DNA of 64,000 nt from Patescibacteria group bacterium (GCA_038064195.1 JBBTTO010000003.1:178428-242427); one strand, 5' to 3'; counted from the first letter of the stretch, positions 776-58,602 are shown. A program made the numbers and translations. Notes: generated from the letters alone by a model not told the origin.

Positions 776-1039
776 TTATTTTCTCTCAACGGTGATGGAG
801 CACTCGGTGACGAGGGCGGCGATAGCGCCTATTGCTGCAAGCGCGGGTGCGATCAAAGCTCCAGCCACGCCGATAGTGAGTGGGAATTCGACGATAGTCT
901 TGCCTTTTTTATCTTTAATGGTAATTCGGCGGATATTGCCTTCGTGAAGTAATTCTTTTACTTTCTTTAATAATTCTTCACCACTGACTTTGAATGTTTC
1001 AGTTTTTGGTCCGGTTTTTTTAGTAGCCATTGATATCAC
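776..1039 (-). CDS. DUF4342-like small protein
   Basis: 87 aa. The pattern FKVSGEELLKKVKELLHEGNIRRITIKDKKGKTIVEFPLTIGV plus a C-terminal hydrophobic helix matches the DUF4342 layout from memory. Confidence 0.5.
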   Translation of the reverse strand: MISMATKKTGPKTETFKVSGEELLKKVKELLHEGNIRRITIKDKKGKTIVEFPLTIGVAGALIAPALAAIGAIAALVTECSITVERK

Positions 1040-1172
1040 CTCCTCTCAAGTATGTCATCCTGAACTTGATTCAGGATCTACTGAGATGCTGAAATAAATT
1101 CAGCATGACAAAGAATTGAATTATAAAATATAATAAATTTTTGTGATGTGAGAAAGATCACGTTGGGATGTC

Positions 1173-1200
1173 CTGGGAGCGCGCAGCTGCGCGCTCCCAG
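1173..1200. terminator. 28-bp perfect palindrome (ctgggagcgcgcagctgcgcgctcccag) downstream of the SDR gene
   Basis: Perfect inverted repeat read directly. It lies between two minus-strand genes. There is no clear U-tract, so it may be a factor-dependent terminator or a protein-binding site. Confidence 0.4.
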
Positions 1201-1226
1201 AAACGAATCCTCTAGCCAAGTTAAGG

Positions 1227-2000
1227 TTAGCCCATCCAGAGTCCACCGTTGACGTCGATCACAGCTCCAGTGATGAAGCTTGCGTCGTCAGACAGCAGGA
1301 ACGCGACCACTCCGGCTACTTCTTCTGGTGTTCCCATCCTTCCGAGGACGGTGCCATTGATGAAGAAGTCCTGCACTTCTTGAGGCAGAACGCCGGTCAT
1401 GTCGGTCTTGATGAAGCCTGGCGCCACCGCATTCACTGTGATCGGGCGTTTGAGGGAGCCGTACTCCCGGGCGAGCGCCCGAGTCAAGGTGATGAGACCG
1501 CCTTTCGCCGCGGCGTAGTTGGCCTGCATCTTTTGGCCGGTCCGTCCGACGATCGATGCGATGTTGACGACACGGCCAGAACGCTGGCTTGACATGATCG
1601 GTAGCGCGGCCTGCGAACAGAGGAAGGGACCGCGAAGGTTGGTGTTGATGACGTCGTCCCAGTTCTCGATCGGCATTTTGGCAGTGGGGCCGTCACGTGT
1701 GATGCCCGCGTTGTTGACGAGGGCGTCGATACGCTTGGCAAACTCCAGCGTATCGTCGATGAGACGTTTCGCGCCTTCCGACGTCGAGACATCTGCTTTG
1801 ACAAGATGGGGAATGCGTTCGCGGACTGCGCCGATTTCGAGCTTGGCGCTCTCGGCGACTGCGTCATCTCCGTGGTAGTTGACGATGAGCTCGTAACCGT
1901 CGGCGCTGAGGCGTTTGGCAATAGCCAAGCCAATTCCTTTTGTGCCTCCTGTTATGATGGCAACTTTTCCTTCTCCGGGTAACTTATTGTCGGTTCCCAT
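1227..2000 (-). CDS. SDR-family oxidoreductase, 3-oxoacyl-ACP reductase (FabG)-like
   Basis: Has the Rossmann TGGTKGIGLAIA motif, NNAG, and the catalytic S...YxxxK (NYAAAKGG). Markedly GC-rich relative to its flanks. Confidence 0.8.
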   Translation of the reverse strand: MGTDNKLPGEGKVAIITGGTKGIGLAIAKRLSADGYELIVNYHGDDAVAESAKLEIGAVRERIPHLVKADVSTSEGAKRLIDDTLEFAKRIDALVNNAGITRDGPTAKMPIENWDDVINTNLRGPFLCSQAALPIMSSQRSGRVVNIASIVGRTGQKMQANYAAAKGGLITLTRALAREYGSLKRPITVNAVAPGFIKTDMTGVLPQEVQDFFINGTVLGRMGTPEEVAGVVAFLLSDDASFITGAVIDVNGGLWMG

Positions 2001-2215
2001 GTCGTGGAGCTCCTTTCGAGCATGTTACTACGGAACGCCGGTGAGGCCGTCTAGTATTTCTAGACTGGCTCATGAGCGTTCCGTATTTGATGGGCTAAGT
2101 TATAAATGAGCTAGAGAATTAAAAGAACATTTGAACATCTGAAAACGCTTAAGTTTTCGTCTATTACAAACGCTTGAGGGAATTATACCTGAAGCTTATA
2201 ATATTTAGCAAAGAT

Positions 2216-3202
2216 CTAGCCGCGGATGATGAGGGAGAGGAGGTGGCGGGCGTAATTTTTCTTTGCATCAGTAATACGTACAACGACCATCCCGAGGTTT
2301 ATCTGTCCATAGATCACCAGTGCACCAAGGGGGGCAAGCATGATGGAGGGAAGTGCCAGTAAGTCCTCCTCACCATCAACGAACATGACCTGGGGGATGA
2401 TATTTTCGATGGCTTTTACTAAAAGCGGACCGAAGTCTTTGTTAATCGTGCCCGCGGGATTACTGATAGTGTAATCGGCTTGCGGAAAGTAAATATCGAG
2501 TTCTTTGGTATCCATAGGTTCCCGATGCGTCATTTTATCCAGAATTGAAAGAGTAACCGGGATGCCTGTCTTGCGGAGTGCAAGTGAGACGATATCGCCA
2601 ATAGTAATAATGGTAGTGTCATCGGTGATTTGTGCCTTGATCGTCTCAATATCGCGGGTGACTTCACCCACAGGCTGCTTGAGCATTTCACGGAGATTCT
2701 CAGGCAGAATATACTCAGGGCTGTCCACGAAAAATTTGAGATAGGAAGTCCCTTCCTGGTCTATGATTCCCTGGCGTATTCTCTCAGAGCTGACGGGCTC
2801 ACCGTCATCTGCTTTAACGAAAGGGACGACCACGATCTGCATTTCCGGAAGCTGACGATTTTTACGTTCGGTATTGATTTTCTTCGCGGTCTCTTCGGTG
2901 GCGGGACTGACGATGATCACATCGATACTCGGGTCAGTGAGTGTGGTGCCGTATTGATCTGTGATAGGAATGAGTGTAGTGCGGTCAAGAAGTTGATGAA
3001 TAGCCAGATAATTCTTCAGGGTCTGCTCACGGGTAGCGTAGTCCTCTATGACCTCAGCATAGTCTTTGTCCTGATACAATTCACTCTCGGCAATACCGAT
3101 CGTCACTCGTTCGGCACGCATGAAAGCATGGGCGAGAAGCATATGATGGCCCGGGTGGAGACGATCAAACGTCCCACCGATGATAGCATGTTGGGCAGGC
3201 AT
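2216..3202 (-). CDS. Fusion of archaeal/eukaryotic-type phosphopantetheine adenylyltransferase (N-terminal) with a DUF359-like domain (GTP-dependent dephospho-CoA kinase family; C-terminal)
   Basis: N-terminus GGTFDRLHPGHHMLL is the cytidylyltransferase H-x-G-H signature. The C-terminal half has ITIGDIV, VDGEEDLLALP and VIYGQ-N-GMVVV, which are reminiscent of DUF359. Confidence 0.55.
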   Translation of the reverse strand: MPAQHAIIGGTFDRLHPGHHMLLAHAFMRAERVTIGIAESELYQDKDYAEVIEDYATREQTLKNYLAIHQLLDRTTLIPITDQYGTTLTDPSIDVIIVSPATEETAKKINTERKNRQLPEMQIVVVPFVKADDGEPVSSERIRQGIIDQEGTSYLKFFVDSPEYILPENLREMLKQPVGEVTRDIETIKAQITDDTTIITIGDIVSLALRKTGIPVTLSILDKMTHREPMDTKELDIYFPQADYTISNPAGTINKDFGPLLVKAIENIIPQVMFVDGEEDLLALPSIMLAPLGALVIYGQINLGMVVVRITDAKKNYARHLLSLIIRG

Positions 3203-13998: not shown

Positions 13999-14958
13999 CT
14001 ACTGCTGCAAGATGCGGGCTTTGAGGGAACGGGCAAAATTAATATACTCAGTCCAGTAAATTTCTGCCAGACTTCGTTCTTTACAGATTTCATTAAGCTG
14101 ATCCAGATCTGCTACTGTCGGAATGATATTTTCCGTTGACTGGGAGTACATGATAGCTTTGAGGTCATTGATATGATCCATGCCTCGGGCGTGTCCCAAC
14201 TCATGGGTCATTGTATGGATCAATTCGTCATGGGAGTTATTAAAATAAATTGAGATGGTGTTCGTGGCGCCATCATAGAGTCCCTCCTCAGGCTTGATAG
14301 ACAGTGATTGATTGAGAGCATCGATCGTGCTGTTAAGACTGCGGACCTGGGAGTTGTAATCTCTGGTTGACTGATTGAGCTCAGCAGCCATGGCATTAAG
14401 GGCTGAGGCCTCGGCCTGAAGCTCTGATTGTTGTTGTTTTAACCCCTGATACACATCAGGGGGCGCACCGCCCTGACTGTTCCATTTACGAATTTCTGCA
14501 TTGAGAGCAGCTGCTTTTTGGTCAAAAGCGGCTGAGCGTGTTTTGTACTCCTGGACTTTAGGATTGAGTGAGTTTTTATCCGTATCGACCTTCTGCTCAA
14601 GACTGTTGATCTGATTACTCAGAGCTGTGCGGGCATCATAGACGAGATTGATAGTGACACCTTTTCTTGTTGGCTCGAATTCAAAAATAGTCTTTTCCTG
14701 AGTCTGATTCCAAATGCCGGCGGCTTCTTTCAGATCAGCGATAGCTTCTTCACGGGTGAGATTGAAGCGATCATCAAGTGAACCGAGGTGGTAGCTGATA
14801 GGTGTATCACAGTATGAACCGGAGAGGAGGTAGCCGTTTGAAGTATGGAAGGCAAAAAGGAAAGCAGTGACACCGACGAGTGCAAAAAAGACAATAAACT
14901 TCTTCATAAAATGATTGTAAATAAAATGCATCGGGCGTGCAAGAAATTCGTTAGTCAT
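13999..14958 (-). CDS. Membrane-anchored metzincin (matrixin/M10-like) zinc metalloprotease with a coiled-coil stalk
   Basis: HELGHARGMDH is the HExxHxxGxxH zinc-binding motif. N-terminal TM anchor. The middle is Q/L/N-rich and coiled-coil-like. Confidence 0.65.
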   Translation of the reverse strand: MTNEFLARPMHFIYNHFMKKFIVFFALVGVTAFLFAFHTSNGYLLSGSYCDTPISYHLGSLDDRFNLTREEAIADLKEAAGIWNQTQEKTIFEFEPTRKGVTINLVYDARTALSNQINSLEQKVDTDKNSLNPKVQEYKTRSAAFDQKAAALNAEIRKWNSQGGAPPDVYQGLKQQQSELQAEASALNAMAAELNQSTRDYNSQVRSLNSTIDALNQSLSIKPEEGLYDGATNTISIYFNNSHDELIHTMTHELGHARGMDHINDLKAIMYSQSTENIIPTVADLDQLNEICKERSLAEIYWTEYINFARSLKARILQQ

Positions 14959-15081: not shown

Positions 15082-15591
15082 ATGGATATCAAGAAAATTG
15101 TTCTAACAGTTGTGGTGGTTGGCAGTTTTGTGGCCTACAGTATCCATGAGCGAGAGGAAGCACAAGAAGCCGTAAATGTCGTCAGGACGTCTCAAGAGCA
15201 GGAAAGTCTCAATCCCCAATCATTTGTCACCCCGACTTCCGAGTCCGCGACCCAGCCACCTCAGAATTTTCAATCAGGCGGCATGATGAAGGGGCAGCAA
15301 ATGATGGGAATGTATAAAGACGGTACGTATATCGGCAGTACCGAGGATGTTTTTTACGGAGATATTCAGGTAAGGGCGACTATCCAGAGGGGGAGGATCG
15401 TAGACATAGAATTTCTCAATTACCCGGCTGATCGGGCTACATCAGTGCAAATTAATGAGGCGATGATGCCGATTCTCAGGCAGGAGGCCATCACGGCTCA
15501 GAGCGCTGATGTCGATATCGTCAGTGGGGCGACAGACTCGAGTAAGGGATTCAGAAGATCACTTGCCAATGCGCTGGCACAGGCACAATAA
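15082..15591 (+). CDS. Membrane-anchored FMN-binding domain protein (flavinylation substrate)
   Basis: N-terminal signal-anchor helix. The C-terminal domain has DIVSGATDSS, matching the Dxx(S/T)GAT flavinylation motif of FMN_bind domains. Confidence 0.7.
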   Translation: MDIKKIVLTVVVVGSFVAYSIHEREEAQEAVNVVRTSQEQESLNPQSFVTPTSESATQPPQNFQSGGMMKGQQMMGMYKDGTYIGSTEDVFYGDIQVRATIQRGRIVDIEFLNYPADRATSVQINEAMMPILRQEAITAQSADVDIVSGATDSSKGFRRSLANALAQAQ

Positions 15592-15606
15592 AAGAATTAA
15601 GAATTT

Positions 15607-15640
15607 GAAGTTAGAAGTCAGTAGTTAGCAGTTAGTTGTT
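15607..15640. repeat. Degenerate heptamer array (gaagtta gaagtca gtagtta gcagtta gttgtt) abutting the apbE ATG
   Basis: Read directly. Same g-agtta family as the array at 7995. Confidence 0.7.
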
Positions 15641-16420
15641 ATGAAAGTTACAAAGTTTATCATGGGGATGCCGATCATCGTTGAAGTAGTTGACCGGAGT
15701 GTTTTGAAAAAAGATTTAGAGGAAGTTTTTGCCTGGTTTCGTCGTGTTGACCGGCAGTTTAGTCCTTATAAAAAAACGAGCGAGGTCTCACGTTTGAATC
15801 GTAAAGAAATTACTTTTGCTCAAGCTTCAGCTGAGATGCGGGAGGTTTTGGTTTTGGCAGAGAAGGCCAAGCAGGAGACTCAGGGCTATTTTGATGTTAC
15901 AGCCCGCGGCTTTTTCGATCCTTCAGGGATTGTTAAGTCCTGGGCAATTGAGAAAGCCTCTCAATTATTACAAGAGAAAGGCTTAGCTCGCTTTTATATC
16001 AATGCCGGAGGAGATATCCAGGTCAGCGGGAGAAATGCACAGGACGCAGACTGGCTTGTCGGTATCCGTCATCCTTTTATACAGGATAAGATCGTCAAAA
16101 CAGTCAGAATACCTGGGGCGATTGCGACCTCGGGGACATATCTGCGCGGCGATCATATCTATGATCCACACCGGAAGGGGATCCTGAAACCAGCTTCCGC
16201 AAGGGACTACCTCTTGAGAGGGGCGCAGGATGACAACCTAGTCAGTCTGAGTGTTATTGCCGGGGATATTGTAACAGCAGACGTTCTGGCGACAGCCTCA
16301 TTTGCGATGGGGAGGAGCGGGATTATGTTTTTAGAAAAAACAGCAGATGTGGAGGGGTATATGATTGATAGGCAGGGAACGGCGACATACACAACTGGGT
16401 TTGAAAAATACGTTGTGTAA
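15641..16420 (+). CDS. apbE: FAD:protein FMN transferase (ApbE/Ftp family)
   Basis: The N-terminal FIMGMPIIVEV (MGT-type), the ARGFFDPSGIVKSWAIEKA region and the C-terminal TSGTY, GDHIYDP are ApbE hallmarks. No signal peptide or lipobox is present. Confidence 0.75.
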   Translation: MKVTKFIMGMPIIVEVVDRSVLKKDLEEVFAWFRRVDRQFSPYKKTSEVSRLNRKEITFAQASAEMREVLVLAEKAKQETQGYFDVTARGFFDPSGIVKSWAIEKASQLLQEKGLARFYINAGGDIQVSGRNAQDADWLVGIRHPFIQDKIVKTVRIPGAIATSGTYLRGDHIYDPHRKGILKPASARDYLLRGAQDDNLVSLSVIAGDIVTADVLATASFAMGRSGIMFLEKTADVEGYMIDRQGTATYTTGFEKYVV

Positions 16421-16480
16421 GTCTAGAAGACAGAATTAAGTATATTGTATACAGAATAAAAAGATAAAGAATAATCTTAC

Positions 16481-16508
16481 TTAATACTTAATACTTAATA
16501 CTTAATAC
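16481..16508. repeat. Tandem heptamer (ttaatac) x4 abutting the ATG of the membrane oxidoreductase gene
   Basis: Read directly: ttaatac ttaatac ttaatac ttaatac aaac ATG. Confidence 0.9.
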
Positions 16509-16512
16509 AAAC

Positions 16513-18033
16513 ATGCTTAATTTTATTGATTCATATCTCGATCGGATTACGATGTACAGGCTTGTCTTGTATTATCTGATCGTCTTGCTCGGAGCGGCTT
16601 TCCTATTGAGTCTCTTAGGCATTCTCAACTATAATCCACTCGGGATTTTATTTAACAGTATTTTTCTGGTCGTTATCTGTTATATCACCAATAGAGTTTT
16701 TGCCTCAGTTTTTAAGGCTCCGACCAACGTCGAGTCTGTCTATATTACATCTCTCATTCTCGCCTGTATCATCACGCCTTTTAAGAGTCTGCAGGATTTG
16801 CCGATGCTCGGCTTTGCGGCTGTGTTGGCAGTCTCATCCAAATATATCTTGGCCATCAAGAAAAAACATATTTTCAATCCCGTGGCGATTGCTGTCGTCC
16901 TGACGGCTTTCGGCTTTGGGGTCTCAGCGAGCTGGTGGATCGGGAACGCCTGGATGACGCCTTTTATCGTACTTGGCGGACTACTCGTCATGCGTAAAAC
17001 GAGACGCGAGCATATGGTCTTCATGTTTTGGGCAGTTGCGTTGGCTGTGATTTCCATTTTTACCCTTATTGATGGTAACTCATATGTCTTGATGCTTGAT
17101 CAGGTCTTCCTCCATTCGTCATTTTTCTTTTTTGCTTTTCTCATGTTCACCGAGCCGCTCACGACTCCGCCGACACGAAGTCTGCAGCTGATGTATGCGG
17201 TCCTCATCGGTCTCCTTTTCCCGCCTCAAGTTCATCTGGGAAGCTGGTATACCACGCCTGAGCTGGCACTTGTCATCGGCAATGTTTTTGCCTATCTGAT
17301 CAGCCCTCGGCAAAAGTTCGTCATGCTTCTCTCAGAAAAATTGCAAATCGCCCCTGATATCATGGATTTTGTTTTCAAGCCTCCTGAACGCCTCCGCTAT
17401 TCAGCAGGTCAGTACTTCGAATGGACTTTTCAACACCCCCAGACCGACAGCCGGGGGAACAGGCGCTATTTTACACTTGCATCAAGTCCGACAGAAGATA
17501 CACTTCGGATCGGGGTCAAATTTTATGAAGGCGGCAGCAGTTACAAAAAATCACTGCAAAAAATGGATGAGAAAGTACCGATTGTTGCTGCACAGCTGGC
17601 AGGAGAGTTCATTTTGCCTAATGATAAGACAAAAAAACTGGTTTTTGTGGCAGGAGGTATCGGAGTGACCCCTTTTAGGAGTATGCTCAAATATCTTATC
17701 GATACGAAAGAAAAGCGGGATATTATCGTCCTTTTCTCCAATAAATATGAGTCGGATATTGTCTATAAAGATATTTTGGATCAGGCAGAACGTGAACTCG
17801 GGATCAGAACTGTTTACACACTGACCGATACTGATAAAATTTCACCGACTTGGACAGGGGAGAAAGGAAGAATTTCCTCTGAGATCATCCAGAAAAATAT
17901 TCCTGACTGGAGAGAACGATTTTTTTATCTTTCGGGTCCGCATGCGATGGTCGTGGGTTTTGAGACGACGCTCAGGCAAATGGGACTGCCGGCATCACTT
18001 ATTAAAAAGGATTTCTTTCCGGGATTTGTATAA
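16513..18033 (+). CDS. Polytopic membrane domain (about 270 aa) fused to a C-terminal ferredoxin-NADP reductase-like FAD/NAD(P)-binding oxidoreductase domain
   Basis: About 6-7 hydrophobic helices at the N-terminus. The C-terminus has RYFTLASSP (RxYS FAD motif) and GGIGVTPF (NAD(P) motif). No Cys cluster, so no Fe-S centre. Confidence 0.65.
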   Translation: MLNFIDSYLDRITMYRLVLYYLIVLLGAAFLLSLLGILNYNPLGILFNSIFLVVICYITNRVFASVFKAPTNVESVYITSLILACIITPFKSLQDLPMLGFAAVLAVSSKYILAIKKKHIFNPVAIAVVLTAFGFGVSASWWIGNAWMTPFIVLGGLLVMRKTRREHMVFMFWAVALAVISIFTLIDGNSYVLMLDQVFLHSSFFFFAFLMFTEPLTTPPTRSLQLMYAVLIGLLFPPQVHLGSWYTTPELALVIGNVFAYLISPRQKFVMLLSEKLQIAPDIMDFVFKPPERLRYSAGQYFEWTFQHPQTDSRGNRRYFTLASSPTEDTLRIGVKFYEGGSSYKKSLQKMDEKVPIVAAQLAGEFILPNDKTKKLVFVAGGIGVTPFRSMLKYLIDTKEKRDIIVLFSNKYESDIVYKDILDQAERELGIRTVYTLTDTDKISPTWTGEKGRISSEIIQKNIPDWRERFFYLSGPHAMVVGFETTLRQMGLPASLIKKDFFPGFV

Positions 18034-18207
18034 TAATTTTTCTCTTGACCCCTCTCCTAATAGGAGAGGGTGGTACCGCTTGCGGAGGGTGAGGTTTAGG
18101 TTGCCTCTTTGCAATTTCTAAACAAATATGGTTTAGTGGGGGAATAATCTTGGGAGGCTTGCCCTCCGAAGCCTGACCTCATAGGGTTAATGCAAATTAA
18201 AGTGAGG

Positions 18208-18259
18208 AACGAAACCCGCCTTCGCTAAAGCTATGGCGGGCGAAGGGGGGTGATAGATA
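18208..18259 (+). promoter_or_regulatory. Conserved 5' leader RNA motif, copy A (aacgaaacccgcc-loop-ggcgggcgaagggggg) in front of the cupredoxin gene
   Basis: Near-identical core to 44279-44349. The stem cccgcc/ggcggg encloses a variable loop and the SD-like GGGGGG follows. Confidence 0.5.
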
Positions 18260-18721
18260 ATGAATAGTAAAATTCTTATAGCTGCTGTTGTACTCCTGGT
18301 AGTACTTGGTACAGGAGTGTATCTTTTGACAAAGAATTCGACCACGACTGCACCTGTCCCTGTTGCGACTCCTACACCGACAACTGCGGCTATCGAGGAG
18401 ACTCCGACAGCAGCACCGTCGGAGGCGATGACAAAGACATCAGGAACAGTCAAAGAGATCACCGTGACCGGTTCATCTTTCAAATTTGTCCCGGCTACGA
18501 TTTCTGTGAAAAAGGGGGACACGGTCAAAGTCACCTTTGTGAACTCGGGCGGCTCGCATAACTTTGTAATTGACGAATTCAGTGTCTCAACCAAGGTTAT
18601 TGCCAGTGGGCAGTCAGAGACTGTCAGTTTTGTGGCTGATAAAGTAGGAACGTATGAATACTACTGCACTGTGGGTAACCACAGGCAAAAGGGTATGGTG
18701 GGCAAACTCATAGTGCAATAA
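18260..18721 (+). CDS. Cupredoxin-fold (type-1 blue copper) protein, membrane-anchored
   Basis: N-terminal TM anchor and a Thr/Pro-rich linker. His in GGSHNF and C-x4-H-x4-M (YYCTVGNHRQKGM) are azurin/plastocyanin-like copper ligands. Confidence 0.65.
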   Translation: MNSKILIAAVVLLVVLGTGVYLLTKNSTTTAPVPVATPTPTTAAIEETPTAAPSEAMTKTSGTVKEITVTGSSFKFVPATISVKKGDTVKVTFVNSGGSHNFVIDEFSVSTKVIASGQSETVSFVADKVGTYEYYCTVGNHRQKGMVGKLIVQ

Positions 18722-18820: not shown

Positions 18821-19336
18821 ATGAATCGGATCTTTCTGATCGGCGGCTTGGGCGTCATCGCTATTGCCGCTGTCAGTGGATTTTTCCTCTCCCGTCCTGA
18901 CTCCGATACCACATCAACCGCAACCCAGTCATCCGCCGGTCCAACTCGTGCACCATCACCGACAACTACATCGGTACCAGAGATGAGTTTTCAGGATCTC
19001 CTCAGCTTGGGAGGAGATCATAAATGTACCTGGTCGGGAACGACTGGGGGGCAGACTATGGATGGGGTCGTCTACCTATCAGGACGTAAAGTGCATAGTG
19101 AGGCACATACGACTGTCCCGACACTCGGGGCGATGACAGCCTATGCTGTGGGGGATGGGACTACGATGACGATCTGGACGAGTATCGCACCAGCGCAAAA
19201 AACAACCATGCCCTATACGCAGATGGGAGCTCCGTCAAGTACGGATAAGCAGGCTTTCAATGCTTTCGCCCAGAAATATGCTTATCACTGCAGTGATTGG
19301 ACTGTAGATCCTACTCTGTTTGTGATCCCTAGATAG
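18821..19336 (+). CDS. Membrane-anchored secreted hypothetical protein
   Basis: Signal-anchor helix followed by a Thr/Ser/Pro-rich linker. Confidence 0.45.
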   Translation: MNRIFLIGGLGVIAIAAVSGFFLSRPDSDTTSTATQSSAGPTRAPSPTTTSVPEMSFQDLLSLGGDHKCTWSGTTGGQTMDGVVYLSGRKVHSEAHTTVPTLGAMTAYAVGDGTTMTIWTSIAPAQKTTMPYTQMGAPSSTDKQAFNAFAQKYAYHCSDWTVDPTLFVIPR

Positions 19337-19366
19337 CCTTGACGCGTTTGGTATAATATATCCAGT

Positions 19367-19939
19367 ATGGTAAGCAAGAGTCCTGAAGGTGATCTTCTTC
19401 CTCATCATGGAGCCTCTAAAGTTGACCTCTCCCAGTTTCGTAGGCTTGATGTGCAACGTATAGGACCGGGTGAAGCATTGCTTCTTTATAATTCCGATGT
19501 GCCTGAAGCCGAGGAGGCTGTTATGGATGTGGGCGCAGATGAGAGGCCCGTAATAGGAGAAATCTCCCCCCAGACAAGACAGATAGTAAAAGATTTGATA
19601 ACCGGGCACGGGGAAGCGATACGGCATGCGACCTCAGGCGAAGGACCGGATGATTTTGGTACTGAGAGAAGTGGGCGGGAAGCCCTTCATGCGGCTATAA
19701 CTGGGTTGAGAGGAGATCGTGCGGGTAGAGGTGCATTCGGGAATATGGTAAAAGAGATCGTTGCAAGTAATGCCACTAAGGGTGTGTACGACCCTCCGGA
19801 CGACTCACTCGCATTTGCAAATGCCATACAAAGGTATGTCCAAGATCAAGCGGATAGGTTTTATGATGAATACGGAGTGCGTTATGATACTAAGCCGATA
19901 CCAATTCGCGGCCAAAATAGAGTTTCTGATGTAGCCTAA
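19367..19939 (+). CDS. Hypothetical protein (GC-rich island)
   Basis: 190-aa ORF with no domain recognised. Confidence 0.35.
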   Translation: MVSKSPEGDLLPHHGASKVDLSQFRRLDVQRIGPGEALLLYNSDVPEAEEAVMDVGADERPVIGEISPQTRQIVKDLITGHGEAIRHATSGEGPDDFGTERSGREALHAAITGLRGDRAGRGAFGNMVKEIVASNATKGVYDPPDDSLAFANAIQRYVQDQADRFYDEYGVRYDTKPIPIRGQNRVSDVA

Positions 19940-20554: not shown

Positions 20555-22240
20555 GTGAATAGGTTTTTGACATTTTTTATTTTTAGTTTTGTCACTTTTC
20601 TCCTCTTTCTCCCCGTGAAAGTCTCTGCACAGGAAGCTATTAATTCCTTTGATGTCTCCATGACTGCAGAGAAAAACGGAGATCTTAAGGTATCGGAAAA
20701 GATCGCATATAGCTTTGGTAGTTCGTACAGGCACGGCATTTATCGCTATATTCCACTCGTTTCACGAGTAGGTGATCTATATCGAGTAATCGACATCAAA
20801 TTTACCGGAATTCTCCGCGACGGGAAGAAAGAACAGTATTCCATAAATAGCAGTGGGGAGGAGATAAAAGTAAAGATAGGGGATGCCGACAAGACCATAT
20901 CCGGTCCGCATCTCTATGAGATCGATTACATCGTGCGAAATGGTATCGGGAGTAACTACGCGGATCATGACGAGATCTACTGGAACGTGACAGGGAATGA
21001 GTGGGGAGCACCTATCGAGGCTGCTTCGCTTTCTCTTGCCACAGATTTTGGTGTACCGGTTGGACGGACCATTTGTTTTACGGGACTGATAGGCTCAAAA
21101 GAAAGTAATTGTGAAGTGACCAATACGAATGGATCAGTAAAAGTCGCAACAGCTATCTCTCTTCCTCAGTCGCAAGGATTGACCTTTGTCTCGAAATTTC
21201 CGGTCGGGACTTTCCCTAAAAGTACCCTGCAAAAATCCATGCCTACCGACCCGGATGTCAAAGTATTTTTGATTATTGTAGGCATAGCATTTGTACTCCT
21301 CAATTTTATCCTCGCGCCATTCCTGCTCTCCTGGTATCTAAAAAAGCGCAATAAAACCAGATTTGGTCCGCCTACGGTGAATTTTGATCTGCCGGAGTCT
21401 TTTAATGGGGAGCGTATCAGTCCCTCAGAAGCGGGGACGATCGATAACACTAAGCTTGAGAAAGAAGATGTCGTGGCGACTATTTTTGATCTGGCGATCA
21501 GAAAATATCTCAAGATCGAAGGCACAATCAAAAAGACCAAATTTGGTTTGGGTGAGAGCCAAGACTTTACCCTCACCCGACTTGAGCCCCTCCAAAGGCG
21601 GGCAGGCCACTCATATGCCGAGCCACTCAATCAGTTTGAGAGTTATCTTATGGACAAGCTGTTTAAAGGTGAGAAGACCGCGACGTTAAAAACGGCCAAG
21701 CTGACCTATACGACTTTTTCAGATCTTGAGACCAAGAACTTCGCGTCATTGATCGGCCGCAATTTTTATAGCAAAAATCCCAAAACACAAAAATCATTCA
21801 GTCTGGTTTTTGGCCTCATGGCACTTTTTTCAGGATCGATCATCCTTGGCCCGGTGCTGTTGTATTTATCACGCAAATTAAATGGACGGACGACTCAAGG
21901 GGATGAGATGGATTGGAAGTTAGACGGGCTAAAGATTTTTCTCAAAGCGACCAAGAGATACGATGTCTGGCAGACCAAGAACTTTGTTTTCCTCGAGTCT
22001 ATGATCCCGTACGCGATGGCACTTGGGGTGATTGAGGATTACATGAAAGAGTTGAAGTTACTTAAGCCCAATTATAGTCCGAGTTGGTACAGCGGGCGGG
22101 GGAATTTCTATATGATGTATCCGCTTTTCAACTCAACAGCAAGCAGTAACGTCACGACCAGTGCCCCATCTTCCTCCAGTGGGTTCTCCGGTGGCTCCTC
22201 AGGTGGAGGAGGGGGAGGTGGCGGCGGCGGGTCTTGGTAG
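20555..22240 (+). CDS. DUF2207-family membrane protein with a Gly-rich C-terminal tail
   Basis: Signal peptide, large extracytoplasmic domain, TM helices, and a C-terminus ending GGSSGGGGGGGGGGSW. Confidence 0.7.
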   Translation: MNRFLTFFIFSFVTFLLFLPVKVSAQEAINSFDVSMTAEKNGDLKVSEKIAYSFGSSYRHGIYRYIPLVSRVGDLYRVIDIKFTGILRDGKKEQYSINSSGEEIKVKIGDADKTISGPHLYEIDYIVRNGIGSNYADHDEIYWNVTGNEWGAPIEAASLSLATDFGVPVGRTICFTGLIGSKESNCEVTNTNGSVKVATAISLPQSQGLTFVSKFPVGTFPKSTLQKSMPTDPDVKVFLIIVGIAFVLLNFILAPFLLSWYLKKRNKTRFGPPTVNFDLPESFNGERISPSEAGTIDNTKLEKEDVVATIFDLAIRKYLKIEGTIKKTKFGLGESQDFTLTRLEPLQRRAGHSYAEPLNQFESYLMDKLFKGEKTATLKTAKLTYTTFSDLETKNFASLIGRNFYSKNPKTQKSFSLVFGLMALFSGSIILGPVLLYLSRKLNGRTTQGDEMDWKLDGLKIFLKATKRYDVWQTKNFVFLESMIPYAMALGVIEDYMKELKLLKPNYSPSWYSGRGNFYMMYPLFNSTASSNVTTSAPSSSSGFSGGSSGGGGGGGGGGSW

Positions 22241-54813: not shown

Positions 54814-55065
54814 AATTGTTCAGGGGATTGTATACTAATAAGATCCTATAGTCAACTCCGACTTGCGTTTCGTCTAAAGCTTCGGCCAGCCTCGCCGTCC
54901 ACCTCGGATCAACCGAGTCGAGACGGGAGTCTAGGCGGGCAAGGCGAGTTGAATCGAAGTCAAAGATACTTTTTAGGGCTCAATATCAGGGTGTGATAGA
55001 AATCACATACGGGAATTTATCTTAAGCATAAGATATCCATTATGGGAGGATTGGGGATTGAAGGT

Positions 55066-55326
55066 ATGACTCACCAGCAAAGAGTCGCTCACAGAATAAA
55101 AATTGCCAAGGGGCATCTGGAAACTGTTCTTAAAATGGTTGAGGGGGAGAGATATTGTATTGATGTTATTAACCAGTCGAGAGCAGTGCAAAATGCTTTA
55201 AAAGAGATTGATTATCTTCTTTTAGAAAACCATCTTCAAACCTGCGTGGTAGATCTTGTTCATAAAGGGAAAGCAAAACAGTCAGTTGAGGAAATAATGA
55301 GACTTTTCAAAAGTAACGATAAATAA
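55066..55326 (+). CDS. csoR: CsoR/RcnR-family metal-sensing transcriptional repressor (copper-sensing CsoR-like)
   Basis: HLETVLKMVEGERYCIDVINQSRAVQNALKEIDYLLLENHLQTCV has the conserved Cys and His/Cys ligands in CsoR-like positions. Confidence 0.75.
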   Translation: MTHQQRVAHRIKIAKGHLETVLKMVEGERYCIDVINQSRAVQNALKEIDYLLLENHLQTCVVDLVHKGKAKQSVEEIMRLFKSNDK

Positions 55327-55327
55327 T

Positions 55328-55864
55328 ATGGCAGATAAAAAATTCATTATCATAGTTGCAATAATCACCTTAGTTATCATGCTTGGTGGTATTGCTTTGG
55401 TTAATAGTTCTTCGTCAACTCCTCAAATTTTGAGCTCAGAAAACGCCCGCCTGCAATTGTCTTCGCAAAGCGATGGCGGGCAGGCAAAAGCGGAAACAGT
55501 AGAACCAACAAGCTATGATTGGGGAAACATTTCGTATAGTGGTACTAAGGCAACAAAGACATTTGCTATCAGGAATACGGGAAGTGATCCTCTCAAGCTC
55601 TTTAATGTTAAAACCTCTTGTCATTGTACGAAAGCGCATGTAACAATTGATGGGAAAGACAGCCCAGATTTTGGAATGAGTGGTATTTCCAGCTGGGCAG
55701 GAGAAGTCCCCGTCGGTAAAGAAGCAAAAGTAACTGTTATTTTTGATCAAGCATTTCATGGCCCACAAGGTATTGGTCCCATTACCCGTTTTGTTTCCAT
55801 AGAAACAAATGATAGAGGTACTCCGAAGATTACATTTACGCTTACAGGAACCGTTGTAAAATGA
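55328..55864 (+). CDS. DUF1573-domain secreted protein
   Basis: TM anchor. FAIRNTGSDPLKLFNVKTSCHCT is the DUF1573 (TSC-x-CT) signature. Confidence 0.65.
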   Translation: MADKKFIIIVAIITLVIMLGGIALVNSSSSTPQILSSENARLQLSSQSDGGQAKAETVEPTSYDWGNISYSGTKATKTFAIRNTGSDPLKLFNVKTSCHCTKAHVTIDGKDSPDFGMSGISSWAGEVPVGKEAKVTVIFDQAFHGPQGIGPITRFVSIETNDRGTPKITFTLTGTVVK

Positions 55865-56817
55865 AAAAAAATGATGAATATATCGAATTAAAAATACCTC
55901 AGATTATCTTCAGAACAATTCCGTTATGGCTAGTGATACTCCTTGTCATTAATTCATCAATGCTTGTTGGATTTACCGAGTACTATTTCATGAAAAAAAT
56001 TTTTAACGATACTGTTGTTGAACTTTCTAAAAAAACAAAATCATCTGAAGAATTGTTTCAGGTAGTAAAACAGCAAGTAATTCCACAAAAAGGATTCACT
56101 CTCGGCGTTGTATGGCATGATATCGGCAAGCAGTTACTCGACTCAGGGGTTATTGATCAACAAAAGTATGACGAACTTTTTGTTAATGACCCTCAAGAGG
56201 AAGAAGCGATGAAGTATTTGACCAGTTCTTCAAAAGACCACATGAAAATTGATGAAAGAAACTCGCGTTTTATGGTGAATACACTTTGGGCTATTGGTTT
56301 GGTGAATAAAAACAGACTTTTAGACGAGGGAGACATGAAAGTAGAAGGAGAGGGGAATCCTATGAAATTCAGCTCAACAGGCGGATGGAATTTAGGCGCA
56401 AAACCGACCAGAGAGCTGTATTCTTCGACTCCGCTTATTAGTCTTTCTTTTCAGCAAGCAGAGCTTGTTAAAAAGATTGCTCAAAATGTGTATCGTCCCT
56501 GCTGTAACAATCCGACATCATTTCCTGATTGTAATCACGGCATGGCAGCACTTGGTTATATTGAGCTCGCTGTCAGCCAGGGTCTTTCAGAAAGAGAAAT
56601 CTATAAAGACGTTCTTGCGCTCAATTCGTTTTGGTTTCCACAAACATATCTAGAGCAGGCAATATATTTCCAAAAGCAAGCTAAGGCATGGGGCAGTATC
56701 GATGCGAAAGTCGCCTTATCAAAAAAATACTCCTCAGCCCAGGGAGCACAAATAGTCAGTCAGTCCATACAAGACGTACCTGGTTTGCAAGCGCCCGGGG
56801 GAGGATGCGCAGCCTAA
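55861..56817 (+). CDS. Membrane-anchored hypothetical protein with a Cys/His cluster (YRPCCNNPTSFPDCNHGM)
   Basis: N-terminal TM helix. Candidate metal-binding site. Confidence 0.45.
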   Translation: MKKNDEYIELKIPQIIFRTIPLWLVILLVINSSMLVGFTEYYFMKKIFNDTVVELSKKTKSSEELFQVVKQQVIPQKGFTLGVVWHDIGKQLLDSGVIDQQKYDELFVNDPQEEEAMKYLTSSSKDHMKIDERNSRFMVNTLWAIGLVNKNRLLDEGDMKVEGEGNPMKFSSTGGWNLGAKPTRELYSSTPLISLSFQQAELVKKIAQNVYRPCCNNPTSFPDCNHGMAALGYIELAVSQGLSEREIYKDVLALNSFWFPQTYLEQAIYFQKQAKAWGSIDAKVALSKKYSSAQGAQIVSQSIQDVPGLQAPGGGCAA

Positions 56818-56818
56818 T

Positions 56819-57652
56819 ATGGAATCAATACTTTTACAAACATCACTTATTGCCGCTTTTGTCGCAGGTATCGTAGCATTGTTTGCCCCTTGTTGCATTT
56901 CATTTTTACTACCGGCGTACCTCGGTAACGTCTTTAAAGAGAAAGAAAAAGTAGTATTGATGACGCTCATTTTTGGTGCCGGTATTTTTGCGGTTATGAT
57001 GCCCGCCGTTCTGGGTGTTGCAGCGTTATCTAAGTTTTTATTTGAATATCATGACAGTATTTATTATCTTGGCGGGTTTGTCATGATACTTTCGGCAGTC
57101 ATAACTTTTTTAGGGCTGAAATTTCCAATGCCCCAATTACCAGGCGGTGATACACGAAAAACTGATCCTTTGTCTGTATTTACCCTCGGTATATTTTCAG
57201 GTATTACCAGCGCGTGTTGCGCGCCGGTTCTCATCGGTATATTGGCATTGACATTTTTATCTCCTAACTTTTTTGGGGCCTTAGCAATAGGTGGTATGTA
57301 TGTTTTGGGAATGGTCATGCCACTTTTATTTATTGCCGTATTTCTTTCGGGAAAGATGACAAAGTTCATGTTTTTGAGAAAGAAAGTATTCAGTTTTCAA
57401 TTTTTAGGTAAAGAACGTACGGTGATTGTTAGTAATTTAATTGCAAGTATCATTTTTTTCCTCACAGGTATTTTAATAATCTATCTTAAATCTATCGGCA
57501 GGCTTGGTATGGAAGACACAGAAGGATTTACGAAGATGATCACCAATGCGAGCGGTTATGTTAATCAATTTGCGGGAGGGAACATGTTGCTTAACCTGAT
57601 ATTTGTAGCAGCTCTTATTTTTGTTCTTTATAAGATTGCAAAAAAGGTATAA
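56819..57652 (+). CDS. DsbD/CcdA-like polytopic membrane protein with two intramembrane Cys-Cys dyads
   Basis: About 8 TM helices. FAPCCISFLLP and SACCAPVL sit at the positions of the CcdA redox cysteines but are doubled. Confidence 0.5.
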   Translation: MESILLQTSLIAAFVAGIVALFAPCCISFLLPAYLGNVFKEKEKVVLMTLIFGAGIFAVMMPAVLGVAALSKFLFEYHDSIYYLGGFVMILSAVITFLGLKFPMPQLPGGDTRKTDPLSVFTLGIFSGITSACCAPVLIGILALTFLSPNFFGALAIGGMYVLGMVMPLLFIAVFLSGKMTKFMFLRKKVFSFQFLGKERTVIVSNLIASIIFFLTGILIIYLKSIGRLGMEDTEGFTKMITNASGYVNQFAGGNMLLNLIFVAALIFVLYKIAKKV

Positions 57653-57686
57653 GCTGAATATATATAAGAGTAAAGAGGTGAGTAGT

Positions 57687-58325
57687 ATGAAAAGAGACCC
57701 GTTAGTATATGGAATAGTTAGTTTTCTTATCGGAGGTGTCATCGTGTGGTTCTTGGCAACGACAGCAGTGAACAATAACCAGTATGGCATGATGCAGATG
57801 ATGGGATTGCGCGGGGGATATCAGAGTATGATCGGTAGCTCAAGCACGATTGATGCTCACTTTATCGAGCAAATGATTCCTCATCACGAAGACGCAATAA
57901 CTATGGCAAAGCTGGCCCTTACAAAAGCAAAACGGACAGAAGTAAAAGAGTTAGCTCAAAATATTATTGACTCACAAGGGAAGGAAATAGACCGGATGAA
58001 AAGTTGGTATAAAGACTGGTATGGAAAAGAAGTACCTTCCGGGGTAAATGTGATGGGTAGACATGGGATGATGGGCAGTAATGGGATGCACATGGGAGTG
58101 ATGGGAGATGAAACTGATTTATCAAGGCTTGAACAAGCAAAGGATTTTGATCGAGCGTTTGTTGAAGAAATGATTCCGCATCATCAAATGGCCGTCATGA
58201 TGGCAAGTATGCTGAAAGATGGAACACAGCGTCCGGAAATGGAGAAACTTGCTAATGATATTATTACTGCCCAAACGAATGAAATAGACCAGATGAGGGG
58301 TTGGTTGCAAAATTGGGAGATATAA
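57687..58325 (+). CDS. DUF305-domain protein (two HH-containing repeats), membrane-anchored
   Basis: FIEQMIPHHEDAITMA and FVEEMIPHHQMAVMMA are the duplicated DUF305 motif. AAAGAGGTGA RBS. The ORF-track start at 57621 is too long. Confidence 0.7.
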   Translation: MKRDPLVYGIVSFLIGGVIVWFLATTAVNNNQYGMMQMMGLRGGYQSMIGSSSTIDAHFIEQMIPHHEDAITMAKLALTKAKRTEVKELAQNIIDSQGKEIDRMKSWYKDWYGKEVPSGVNVMGRHGMMGSNGMHMGVMGDETDLSRLEQAKDFDRAFVEEMIPHHQMAVMMASMLKDGTQRPEMEKLANDIITAQTNEIDQMRGWLQNWEI

Positions 58326-58329
58326 GGAG

Positions 58330-58602
58330 GTGAGGAATATGTTGAACGCAAAAGCATTTGCGAATGCAAGTACTCTTGTACTTCTCGCAGTATATGTAGT
58401 TTGTCGAGTCGTATCACTGGTAGCGCCTGACTTTCTTTTTAGTATTGCTAAAAGCTGGTTTCATACAATTAGTGTTGACAGCTTAAGGGGAATAAGTCCA
58501 ATGGATTTGGGGACATTTTTATTCGGAGGGATAGCCTTAGCTGTTTTAGTTTGGGTGACAACCTACGCGACAATTACTCTCTATAACCGTTGGGCAAAAT
58601 AA
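58330..58602 (+). CDS. Small membrane protein
   Basis: 90 aa, 2-3 TM helices. Last gene of the CsoR cluster. Confidence 0.4.
   Translation: MRNMLNAKAFANASTLVLLAVYVVCRVVSLVAPDFLFSIAKSWFHTISVDSLRGISPMDLGTFLFGGIALAVLVWVTTYATITLYNRWAK

Follow-up and report, generated by a model that had tools for sequence, protein, structure and literature searches.

Four consecutive genes on the same strand of a 64,000-nucleotide stretch of DNA from a Patescibacteria group bacterium (GCA_038064195.1 JBBTTO010000003.1:178428-242427; the window) are best read as encoding an NAD(P)H:cupredoxin oxidoreductase variant of the already predicted NQR/RNF-like system. All four ORFs, of 169, 259, 506 and 153 aa, lie on the + strand and are referred to here as genes i to iv. 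A first-pass annotation, made from the sequence alone, had proposed that they form a module, and both the ORF coordinates and the Pfam domain calls agree with this proposal, FMN_bind, ApbE, NAD_binding_1, Copper-bind and, weakly, FAD_binding_6 all being matched.

Gene i (15082–15591, +) encodes an RnfG/NqrC-like FMN-binding subunit matching FMN_bind (PF04205, E 1.2e-8) at residues 92–165. The protein begins with a signal-anchor helix (approximately residues 6–22), followed by a Q/S/P/T-rich linker of about 60 aa, and carries the flavinylation motif DIVSGAT (D145 to T151; Thr151 codon at 15532–15534), as expected for the membrane-anchored protein with a Dxx(S/T)GAT motif that had been noticed earlier. 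The [ST]G[AS][ST] core (SGAT, SGAS and SGSS types) was seen in all 71 of the homologues listed, 67 of which also have an N-terminal TM helix. In this family the flanks of the anchor contain on average 2.45 Lys plus Arg residues on the N-terminal side versus 1.34 on the C-terminal side, a charge bias that predicts an N-in orientation with the FMN_bind domain outside.

Gene ii (15641–16420, +) matches ApbE (PF02424, E 1.3e-39, 136.7 bits), aligns to the Vibrio cholerae ApbE structures 6nxi and 6nxj, and is a compact FAD:protein FMN transferase of the ApbE type. Its fold, catalytic His and metal/FAD-binding residues are those conserved in ApbE: the HIYDP motif is kept (His172; HIY[DN]P in 57 of 59 homologues), and Asp214 and Thr218 are invariant in the homologue alignment. 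A 14-aa insertion (GILKPASARDYLLR) is missing from the aligned relatives of other organisms. The apparent lack of a signal peptide, remarked on in the first-pass annotation, is real, since the ORF cannot be extended upstream and the N-terminal MKVTKFIMGMP is already the first strand of the ApbE core. Gene ii thus has neither the signal peptide nor the lipobox of a canonical extracytoplasmic ApbE. The same was true across the ApbE proteins of approximately 66 loci, which begin with MKxTRxIMGMP and have no N-terminal hydrophobic segment, signal peptide or lipobox. A leaderless enzyme whose substrate is predicted to lie outside means that the assumptions made about topology or maturation are incomplete in at least one point.

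Gene iii (16513–18033, +) encodes a fusion of an RnfD/NqrB-like membrane domain (residues 1 to about 268; 16513–17316, +) with a cytoplasmic FNR-type FAD/NAD(P)H domain (residues about 269–506; 17317–18033, +). Some gene callers start the protein at Met14 (P0001, 493 aa), but residues 1–13 are conserved in the homologues and the start was therefore assigned to 16513. The membrane domain is an RnfD/NqrB homologue, matching NQR2_RnfD_RnfE (PF03116) with 28.6 bits (cut-off 27.7), and the C-terminal part matches NAD_binding_1 (PF00175, E 1.5e-17). Ten TM helices were predicted, with both ends cytoplasmic; together with the N-in anchor of gene i, this topology fits the proposed electron flow. Conserved motifs of the membrane domain include APTNVES, KKHIFNP, SASWW and TEPLTTPP. 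An alignment of 80 sequences revealed no conserved [ST]G[AS][ST] flavinylation motif in this domain, and conservation among the homologues revealed no Fe-S or heme-type ligands and no conserved Cys pairs, H119 and H241 being its only conserved His residues. The first-pass description of a polytopic domain fused to an FNR-like domain, with GGxGxxP (GGIGVTP, residues 381–387) and free of Fe-S and heme ligands, is thus accurate except for the flavin-binding motif, given as RxYS, which is really the variant RRYFT (residues 317–321).

Gene iv (18260–18721, +) matches Cupredoxin_1 (PF13473) and Copper-bind (PF00127), with E values of about 1e-13 and a PF00127 score of 51.5 bits (cut-off 21.2). A signal-anchor helix and a linker rich in T, P and A precede its cupredoxin domain (residues about 60–153), which contains the motifs GGSHNF and C-x4-H-x4-M (residues 136–146). 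These supply the candidate ligands His100, Cys136, His141 and Met146 (codons at 18557–18559, 18665–18667, 18680–18682 and 18695–18697), and the His-Cys-His-Met set is conserved in 7 of 7 aligned cupredoxins of the clade. By its fold and ligand set, gene iv is predicted to be a type-1 (blue) copper cupredoxin, as had been claimed, and to be membrane-tethered. Its best solved relatives, 2dv6 (E 1.8e-16) and 6tfd (E 1.1e-15), are matched in the N-terminal tethered, electron-donating cupredoxin domains of three-domain Cu nitrite reductases. The loop YYC.(4)H.(4)M is common to gene iv and these enzymes, one of which (2dv6) is the nitrite reductase of Hyphomicrobium denitrificans; gene iv differs in being free-standing and membrane-tethered, and no nitrite-reductase core was detected among the window ORFs scanned. 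The 226-bp spacer between genes iii and iv (18034–18259, +) carries a perfect 9-bp hairpin (18050–18070) directly past the gene iii stop codon, a weak promoter-like site (18119–18148) and, ahead of the gene iv ATG, a strong ribosome-binding site (GGGGGTGAT). No consensus terminator was found in the spacer, its folding energy is ordinary (z = -0.89), and the corresponding spacers of relatives measure 66–252 bp.

The cluster had not been recognised as a described Nqr/Rnf cluster, which proved wrong. Meheust et al. (2021, eLife, PMC8238504), in their study of flavinylation-associated clusters, gave an operational definition of the NQR/RNF-like system. In the window, a single protein combines an NqrB/RnfD domain (PF03116) at its N-terminus with an NqrF-type NAD-binding domain (PF00175) at its C-terminus, and the genes for FMN_bind and ApbE directly precede it in the same orientation; by the published definition, applied here to sequence, the cluster belongs to that system. 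Huang et al. (2024, PMC10979944), modelling the Ktedonobacter racemifer complex, described an NqrB/RnfD-like subunit without the flavinylated Thr and an RnfG/NqrC-like subunit retaining its own; likewise, the window membrane domain has lost this Thr and gene i has kept T151. The window cluster and the NQR/RNF-like system share the same two subunits, an apbE gene in the cluster and the same phyla (CPR, Chloroflexota and Actinomycetota), but differ in the type-1 cupredoxin gene that follows the core here. The identity of the membrane domain does not point to a different function, since RnfD/NqrB, too, conducts electrons across the membrane by means of flavins. Neither Meheust et al. nor Huang et al. 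mention copper or cupredoxins, and no mention of the leaderless state of the associated ApbE was found in the text of either paper; these are two features that are new relative to both. The literature searched yielded no experimental report on any NQR/RNF-like system.

With canonical Rnf and Na+-NQR the window system shares homologous RnfD/NqrB and RnfG/NqrC subunits, the NqrF-type FAD/NADH module (of NQR), flavins as membrane-spanning cofactors and ApbE as maturase. It differs in lacking Fe-S clusters, the six-subunit operon and a covalent FMN site in the RnfD-like domain, and in having the FNR domain fused directly to RnfD; RnfA/E (NqrD/E), RnfB, RnfC and NqrA were absent from the neighbouring genes (Pfam) and from the annotation of relatives. 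In solved Rnf/Nqr complexes, the riboflavin of RnfD/NqrB lies near the cytoplasmic side and the FMN near the periplasmic side, about 8 Å apart; electron flow in the window system is predicted to be one-way outward, the reverse of the FMN to riboflavin direction in Rnf/NQR. MsrQ-like/PepSY-like systems with a C-terminal PF00175 domain and the eukaryotic and bacterial NOX/ferric reductases have two b-type hemes in their conduit, whereas the window conduit has the RnfD fold and no heme ligands. Listeria-type EET resembles the present case in that an FMN_bind protein facing outward receives its flavin from an enzyme of the ApbE family and relays electrons. FmnB of that system is an exported lipoprotein, unlike the leaderless ApbE of the window. 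A Listeria-type assignment was rejected, in line with the first-pass annotation: the NCBIfam PplA model scored only 18.3 bits (cut-off 325), neither Ndh2 nor EetA/B occurred in the neighbouring genes, and there is no quinone step.

About 60 of the 80 species-representative loci (Patescibacteria, Ktedonobacteria/Chloroflexia and Actinomycetota) have the order FMN_bind–ApbE–RnfD/FNR, and the window gene iii shares 53–55% identity with proteins of cultured Ktedonobacteria (L004 and L019), the class that includes the organism modelled by Huang et al. With the membrane domain alone (E ≤ 1e-30), the family comprises 392 clusters at 50% identity, far exceeding the 127 first reported. The neighbourhood that includes the cupredoxin is conserved within the clade of the window and reappears in two distant lineages, but most of the family lacks it. 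In 6 of 7 sampled clade members (the window, L081, L082, L085, L092 and L093, with RnfD-FNR proteins 63–86% identical) the cupredoxin gene lies directly downstream of gene iii, this position being taken by a non-cupredoxin gene in L094. Orthologous cupredoxins also occur near very distant RnfD-FNR genes, divergent-adjacent in L060 and two genes downstream in L095. Among the 80 representative loci, an adjacent type-1 cupredoxin is present only in L060; 77 have no cupredoxin-fold gene beside the core, and in L066 and L076 cupredoxin-fold proteins without the type-1 Cys follow RnfD-FNR. In L026 a second type-1 cupredoxin is found at a distance of about 4 kb, roughly as expected by chance within ±6 kb.

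We infer the following course of electron transfer, every step of it and the cofactor occupancy of the RnfD-like domain included. The cytoplasmic FNR domain of gene iii would oxidise NAD(P)H on FAD, and the RnfD/NqrB-like domain, which has lost the covalent-FMN threonine and probably still binds a flavin non-covalently on the cytoplasmic side, at the riboflavin-type site, would conduct the electrons across the membrane. They would pass to FMN attached covalently by ApbE to Thr151 of the outward-facing, tethered gene i protein, this FMN docking where the RnfD-like domain has an outer flavin pocket left empty. The next step in this lineage would be reduction of the tethered cupredoxin by the flavin domain, and the cupredoxin may in turn hand single electrons to a high-potential acceptor, a NirK-type copper nitrite reductase being the leading guess; the cupredoxin's role as physiological acceptor, and all that lies beyond it, is likewise putative. 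The scan of window ORFs detected no NirK, oxidase or multicopper oxidase that could serve as terminal acceptor. The flow from NAD(P)H through FAD and the membrane to extracytoplasmic FMN, put forward in the first-pass annotation, fits the topology, the fold and the proposals of Meheust et al. and Huang et al.; its final step, from FMN to the blue copper protein, is plausible from the gene neighbourhood.

It is probable, though by no means certain, that genes i to iii form a two-subunit NQR/RNF-like complex with its maturase that reduces the neighbouring cupredoxin in this lineage. About half as probable is that the three-gene core works as described while the cupredoxin is merely a lineage-inherited neighbour, the acceptor being Fe(III), oxygen, a host-derived quinone or a periplasmic reductase. 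The many representative loci without a cupredoxin-fold gene, the lack of any other conserved acceptor gene next to the core in these loci and the missing cupredoxin in L094 are consistent with this, as are two cupredoxin orthologues (L096 and L097) without RnfD-FNR nearby, the six clusters of Meheust et al. linked to the VIT1 iron transporter (PMC8238504), and the spacer with its possible promoter-like site. Moreover, an unrelated-looking M10-type protease is conserved as well as the cupredoxin in the window's clade, so part of the synteny there may be simple inheritance. On the other hand, the cupredoxin stays in the five relatives although their flanks diverge right behind it, and L060 and L095, whose RnfD-FNR genes are very distant, have members of the same cupredoxin family beside or near these genes, each in a gene order of its own. 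The proteins of genes i and iv are alike tethered and outward-facing, with a strongly downhill redox step between them. A role in copper handling, in which the cupredoxin-like protein would bind Cu(II) and the flavin would reduce it so that copper can be taken up or detoxified, appears the least likely of the readings. It might draw on the related flavinylation systems tied to iron reduction and uptake (PMC8238504) and on the proteins without type-1 Cys in L066 and L076, but in the window cupredoxin the type-1 ligand set for electron transfer is complete and conserved, the protein most resembles the donor domains of nitrite reductases, and the neighbouring genes include no copper transporter or chaperone by Pfam. 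A further point in favour of copper handling is a cluster at 55042–58602 of the window with a CsoR-type metal-sensing repressor.

The leaderless ApbE raises the question of whether the anchor is inverted, with the FMN_bind domain and its flavinylation in the cytoplasm and only the RnfD-like domain conducting electrons out to the cupredoxin. There are precedents, e.g. in Klebsiella pneumoniae, for an ApbE that acts in the cytoplasm on substrates located there, and there is no room for a leader in any of the approximately 66 loci. We consider this arrangement improbable, since the FMN_bind protein begins with MKK followed by the TM helix and has the higher positive charge N-terminally, it has a linker similar to the one in the cupredoxin, which is necessarily external, RnfG/NqrC is periplasmic in solved complexes, and a published AlphaFold-multimer model places the subunit on the outer face (PMC10979944). 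There is a similarly slight chance that flow from NAD(P)H to copper is coupled to Na+ or H+ export via the RnfD/NqrB-like domain, which would be compatible with cupredoxin reduction and add a function to it. NqrB is one proposed Na+ path in NQR, and the potential difference between NAD(P)H and a type-1 copper centre provides a large driving force. However, current models place the redox-driven conformational switch in RnfA/E (NqrD/E) with its intramembrane 2Fe-2S cluster, which is absent here, and both Meheust et al. and Huang et al. favour simple unidirectional transfer (PMC8238504, PMC10979944).

If cupredoxin reduction is the function, the cupredoxin that follows the core may be the electron acceptor of the NQR/RNF-like system, and the module would allow an organism that lacks a conventional respiratory chain to dispose of cytoplasmic reducing equivalents without quinones, hemes or Fe-S clusters. 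More tentatively, and with the odds against it, a subset of the ultra-small CPR/Patescibacteria may combine the NQR/RNF-like complex and the cupredoxin into a minimal respiratory-like chain, free of quinone, heme and Fe-S, running from NAD(P)H through FAD, flavin(s), covalent FMN and blue copper to a copper enzyme such as NirK, with a non-canonical ApbE route besides. The leaderless ApbE, being family-wide, would then imply that an exported protein is flavinylated in a non-canonical way, e.g. by modification of the C-terminal site of the FMN_bind protein before or during translocation. Papers on CPR bacteria state that the route of electrons to their cupredoxins and NirK is unknown; such a chain would supply the 'unknown means' by which the cupredoxins and nitrite reductases of these organisms are reduced.

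The product of gene iii (16513–18033, + strand; 506 aa) consists of a membrane domain of about 268 residues followed by an FNR-type FAD/NAD(P)H region (FAD_binding_6/NAD_binding_1; PF00175, E 1.5e-17). Residues 147–264 matched NQR2_RnfD_RnfE (Pfam:PF03116) at 28.6 bits, above the gathering score of 27.7. Because a profile of 12 such membrane domains gave a single match in the PDB, Azotobacter RnfD (8ahx_D), and that a weak one (E 0.0036), the RnfD fold was settled by structure comparison and not by profile search; an AlphaFold2 model built with 80 homologues was confident (pLDDT 89.9, pTM 0.83). The public entry identical to this product (P0001, 493 aa) begins at Met14. Homologues conserve the 13 residues before it (16513–16551), MLNFIDSYLDRIT, so the true ORF is the longer one.

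Helix positions and the Lys/Arg distribution in 80 sequences predict ten transmembrane (TM) helices and a cytoplasmic position for both ends, the loops at 113–122, 160–168 and 264–270 having Lys plus Arg values of 2.0–3.7, as against 0.04–0.45 in the alternating loops. This layout would place the FNR domain in the cytoplasm and the conserved SASWW and PQxH loops on the outer face. The first-pass annotation had seen no Fe-S or heme ligands in gene iii, and conserved candidates in the membrane part are indeed limited to H119 and H241; the FNR-like domain it had described is likewise present, but the motif given as RxYS reads RRYFT. The possibility that SASWW is a hidden flavinylation site in the RnfD-like domain was discarded: 20 of the 80 sequences have N, D or I at position 140, and the motif's Gly is lacking.

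The other three genes are what that annotation took them for: a membrane-anchored FMN-binding protein with a flavinylation motif, an ApbE flavin transferase without signal peptide and a type-1 copper cupredoxin. Gene i (15082–15591, + strand; 169 aa; PF04205, E 1.2e-8) encodes a protein with a hydrophobic anchor at its N-terminus and a ~60-residue linker; residues 145–151 form the flavinylation motif DIVSGAT, and this C-terminal site lies 18 residues before the end. Of 71 FMN_bind substrates, 67 have an MKK-plus-TM signal anchor whose positive charge is on the N-terminal flank. Gene iv (18260–18721, + strand; 153 aa; PF13473 and PF00127, E ~1e-13) has the complete ligand set His100, Cys136, His141 and Met146, in a C-x4-H-x4-M loop. 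Among solved structures it is most closely related to the tethered cupredoxin domains at the N-terminus of three-domain copper nitrite reductases (2dv6, E 1.8e-16; 6tfd, E 1.1e-15). The full-length iterative HMM search with this protein drifted to FMN_bind proteins through the shared TM-plus-linker region and was redone with the domain only.

The arrangement had not been recognised as a described Nqr/Rnf type, which was wrong. The 'NQR/RNF-like system' of Meheust et al. (2021) is by definition a flavinylation-associated cluster encoding a PF03116-PF00175 fusion, with 127 clusters chiefly from Actinobacteria and the candidate phyla radiation (CPR), and every testable element of this definition is present in the window. 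The gene iii product is 53–55% identical to proteins of cultured Ktedonobacteria (loci L004 and L019). The complex that Huang et al. (2024) modelled for Ktedonobacter racemifer has two subunits only; in it, the RnfD-like subunit has lost the flavinylated Thr and the FMN site of the RnfG-like subunit docks beside the flavin pocket of its partner. The part of the first-pass mechanism that concerns genes i to iii is thus essentially a published hypothesis, and a literature search found no experimental study of the NQR/RNF-like system. The locus is genuine and well formed; its core belongs to a system that is known, but by prediction only.

Full-length homologues are plentiful, mostly in Patescibacteria, and the membrane domain alone retrieved 392 representatives of 50% identity clusters at E ≤ 1e-30 and 1539 at E ≤ 1e-3. 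The order FMN_bind-ApbE-RnfD/FNR occurs in about 60 of 80 related loci from species-representative genomes, usually with overlapping stop and start codons; a divergent basal group with SGSS-type FMN_bind proteins and an ApbE of ~290 aa follows the same plan. Clustering of all neighbours in the 80 loci revealed no other conserved partner, ABC transporters, two-component systems and sigma factors each being present in at most 16. A metagenome scan with the window protein alone brought up no more than 3 loci (51% identity) and did not help with synteny among close relatives. An Rfam scan of the whole 64-kb window detected no RNA family.

Gene ii (15641–16420, + strand; 259 aa; PF02424, E 1.3e-39) encodes an ApbE of the size (~245–290 aa) found in the window and about 66 related loci. 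All of these proteins open directly with strand one of the catalytic core (MKxTRxIMGMP; in the basal group, FEAIGT), with no hydrophobic N-terminus and no room for one. The enzyme looks catalytically intact from its conserved residues: 57 of 59 homologues have HIY[DN]P, and both D214 and T218 are invariant. A Gly placed by the HMMER alignment at the catalytic His position of V. cholerae ApbE was dismissed, the true counterpart being HIY[DN]P a few residues upstream. The window protein has a 14-residue in-frame insertion, GILKPASARDYLLR, at residues ~179–192, directly after the catalytic HIYDPHRK motif. This insertion is absent from all seven aligned relatives of other organisms and present in L087, a second assembly of the same organism, where the gene call stops 29 residues earlier at the C-terminal end. 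In L093, a relative at 63% identity, RnfD-FNR directly follows FMN_bind with 117 bp between them (996–3079) and ApbE is missing from the cluster.

A leaderless ApbE with a predicted outward-facing substrate constitutes a paradox. RnfG/NqrC are periplasmic in solved complexes, and the known cytoplasmic ApbEs act on cytoplasmic substrates. Among the options, the C-terminal FMN_bind site may be modified before or during translocation, ApbE may be exported by a non-classical route, or the topology of the FMN_bind protein may be inverted. In the survey of Meheust et al. (2021), components without predicted signal peptides were discarded and CPR were 'strikingly underrepresented', perhaps because leaderless ApbEs failed this filter. 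A leaderless ApbE serving an outward substrate challenges the view that extracytosolic flavinylation needs an exported ApbE.

The cupredoxin gene directly follows RnfD-FNR in the window and in five members of its clade (L081, L082, L085, L092 and L093; RnfD-FNR 63–86% identical to that of the window), among which the flanking genes beyond it differ. Outside this clade, far away in a rough neighbour-joining tree, an orthologous type-1 cupredoxin adjoins a distant RnfD-FNR divergently in L060, and in L095 (a Daviesbacteria contig) a cupredoxin lies two genes downstream of another; in L066 and L076, cupredoxin-fold proteins without the type-1 Cys are encoded directly downstream. Against a strict partnership, an adjacent type-1 cupredoxin was found in only 1 of the 80 representative loci, L096 and L097 carry cupredoxin orthologues alone, a 226-bp spacer separates genes iii and iv, and an M10-type protease is just as well conserved alongside in the window's clade; in L094, a nested member of that clade, an unrelated 183-aa gene takes the position of the cupredoxin. 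We read the link, from gene order, as real but lineage-restricted, the cupredoxin probably serving as an acceptor module that is optional. Both the coupling to a cupredoxin and the lack of a leader in ApbE add to the described system, and neither was found in the searchable literature.

Several neighbouring features are worth recording. A hairpin 3' of gene iii was ruled out as a terminator, having no U-tract and an unremarkable folding energy. The protease (13999–14958, - strand) is a membrane-anchored, coiled-coil M10/matrixin-like metalloprotease (HELGHARGMDH) divergent from the module; its position is kept in every member of the window's clade (L081, L082, L085, L092, L093 and L094) and in none of the 80 representative loci. 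Two small genes after the cupredoxin (18821–19939, + strand; 171 and 190 aa), neither with a Pfam match, seem not to belong to the module; the 171-aa protein, TM-anchored with an S/T/P-rich linker and the only one of the two searched, recurs only in L081 (the 86% relative). In L095 (2091–4699), a malic-enzyme gene overlaps the start of the RnfD-FNR gene, with no adjacent FMN_bind or ApbE, which hints at a dedicated NAD(P)H source. Farther downstream in the window, a DUF2207 membrane protein (20555–22240, + strand) ends in a Gly/Ser run (…GGSSGGGGGGGGGGSW), and its gene is split in two in L087. GC content steps sharply between 22001 and 28000 (0.36–0.38 at 22–26 kb and 0.52 at 26–28 kb, versus ~0.45 around the module), which may mark foreign or differently evolving DNA. 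At 55042–58602 (+ strand), the gene for a CsoR-type metal-sensing repressor (PF02583) comes before those for DUF1573, two membrane proteins without annotation (one has a CC motif), DUF305 and DUF5676; this looks like a copper- or metal-responsive cluster and might be tied to the copper supply of the cupredoxin.

From architecture, fold, motifs, predicted topology and synteny, we infer that NAD(P)H would reduce FAD on the cytoplasmic FNR domain of gene iii, from which electrons would pass to a flavin bound non-covalently at the site on the cytoplasmic side of the RnfD-like domain, then to the Thr151-linked FMN of the tethered RnfG-like protein, docked in the outer pocket, to the type-1 Cu of the tethered cupredoxin and finally to a high-potential acceptor beyond it. 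Compared with Rnf/NQR, the RnfD/NqrB flavin pair would run in the opposite direction. No terminal acceptor (NirK, multicopper oxidase or oxidase subunit II) was detected in the 26 distinct window ORFs scanned.

CPR/Patescibacteria account for a large part of bacterial diversity and are usually portrayed as fermenters that have no electron-transport chain. Among them the NQR/RNF-like module is very widespread, with hundreds of 50%-identity clusters. Many of these bacteria encode cupredoxins and NirK, which are reduced 'by an unknown means', their electron supply being called unknown (Danczak et al. 2017; Adv Sci 2025). As NAD(P)H:cupredoxin reductase activity is directly measurable, the type-1 cupredoxin is a concrete, assayable acceptor candidate, and if the link is true, these organisms would have an outlet for reducing equivalents outside the cell.
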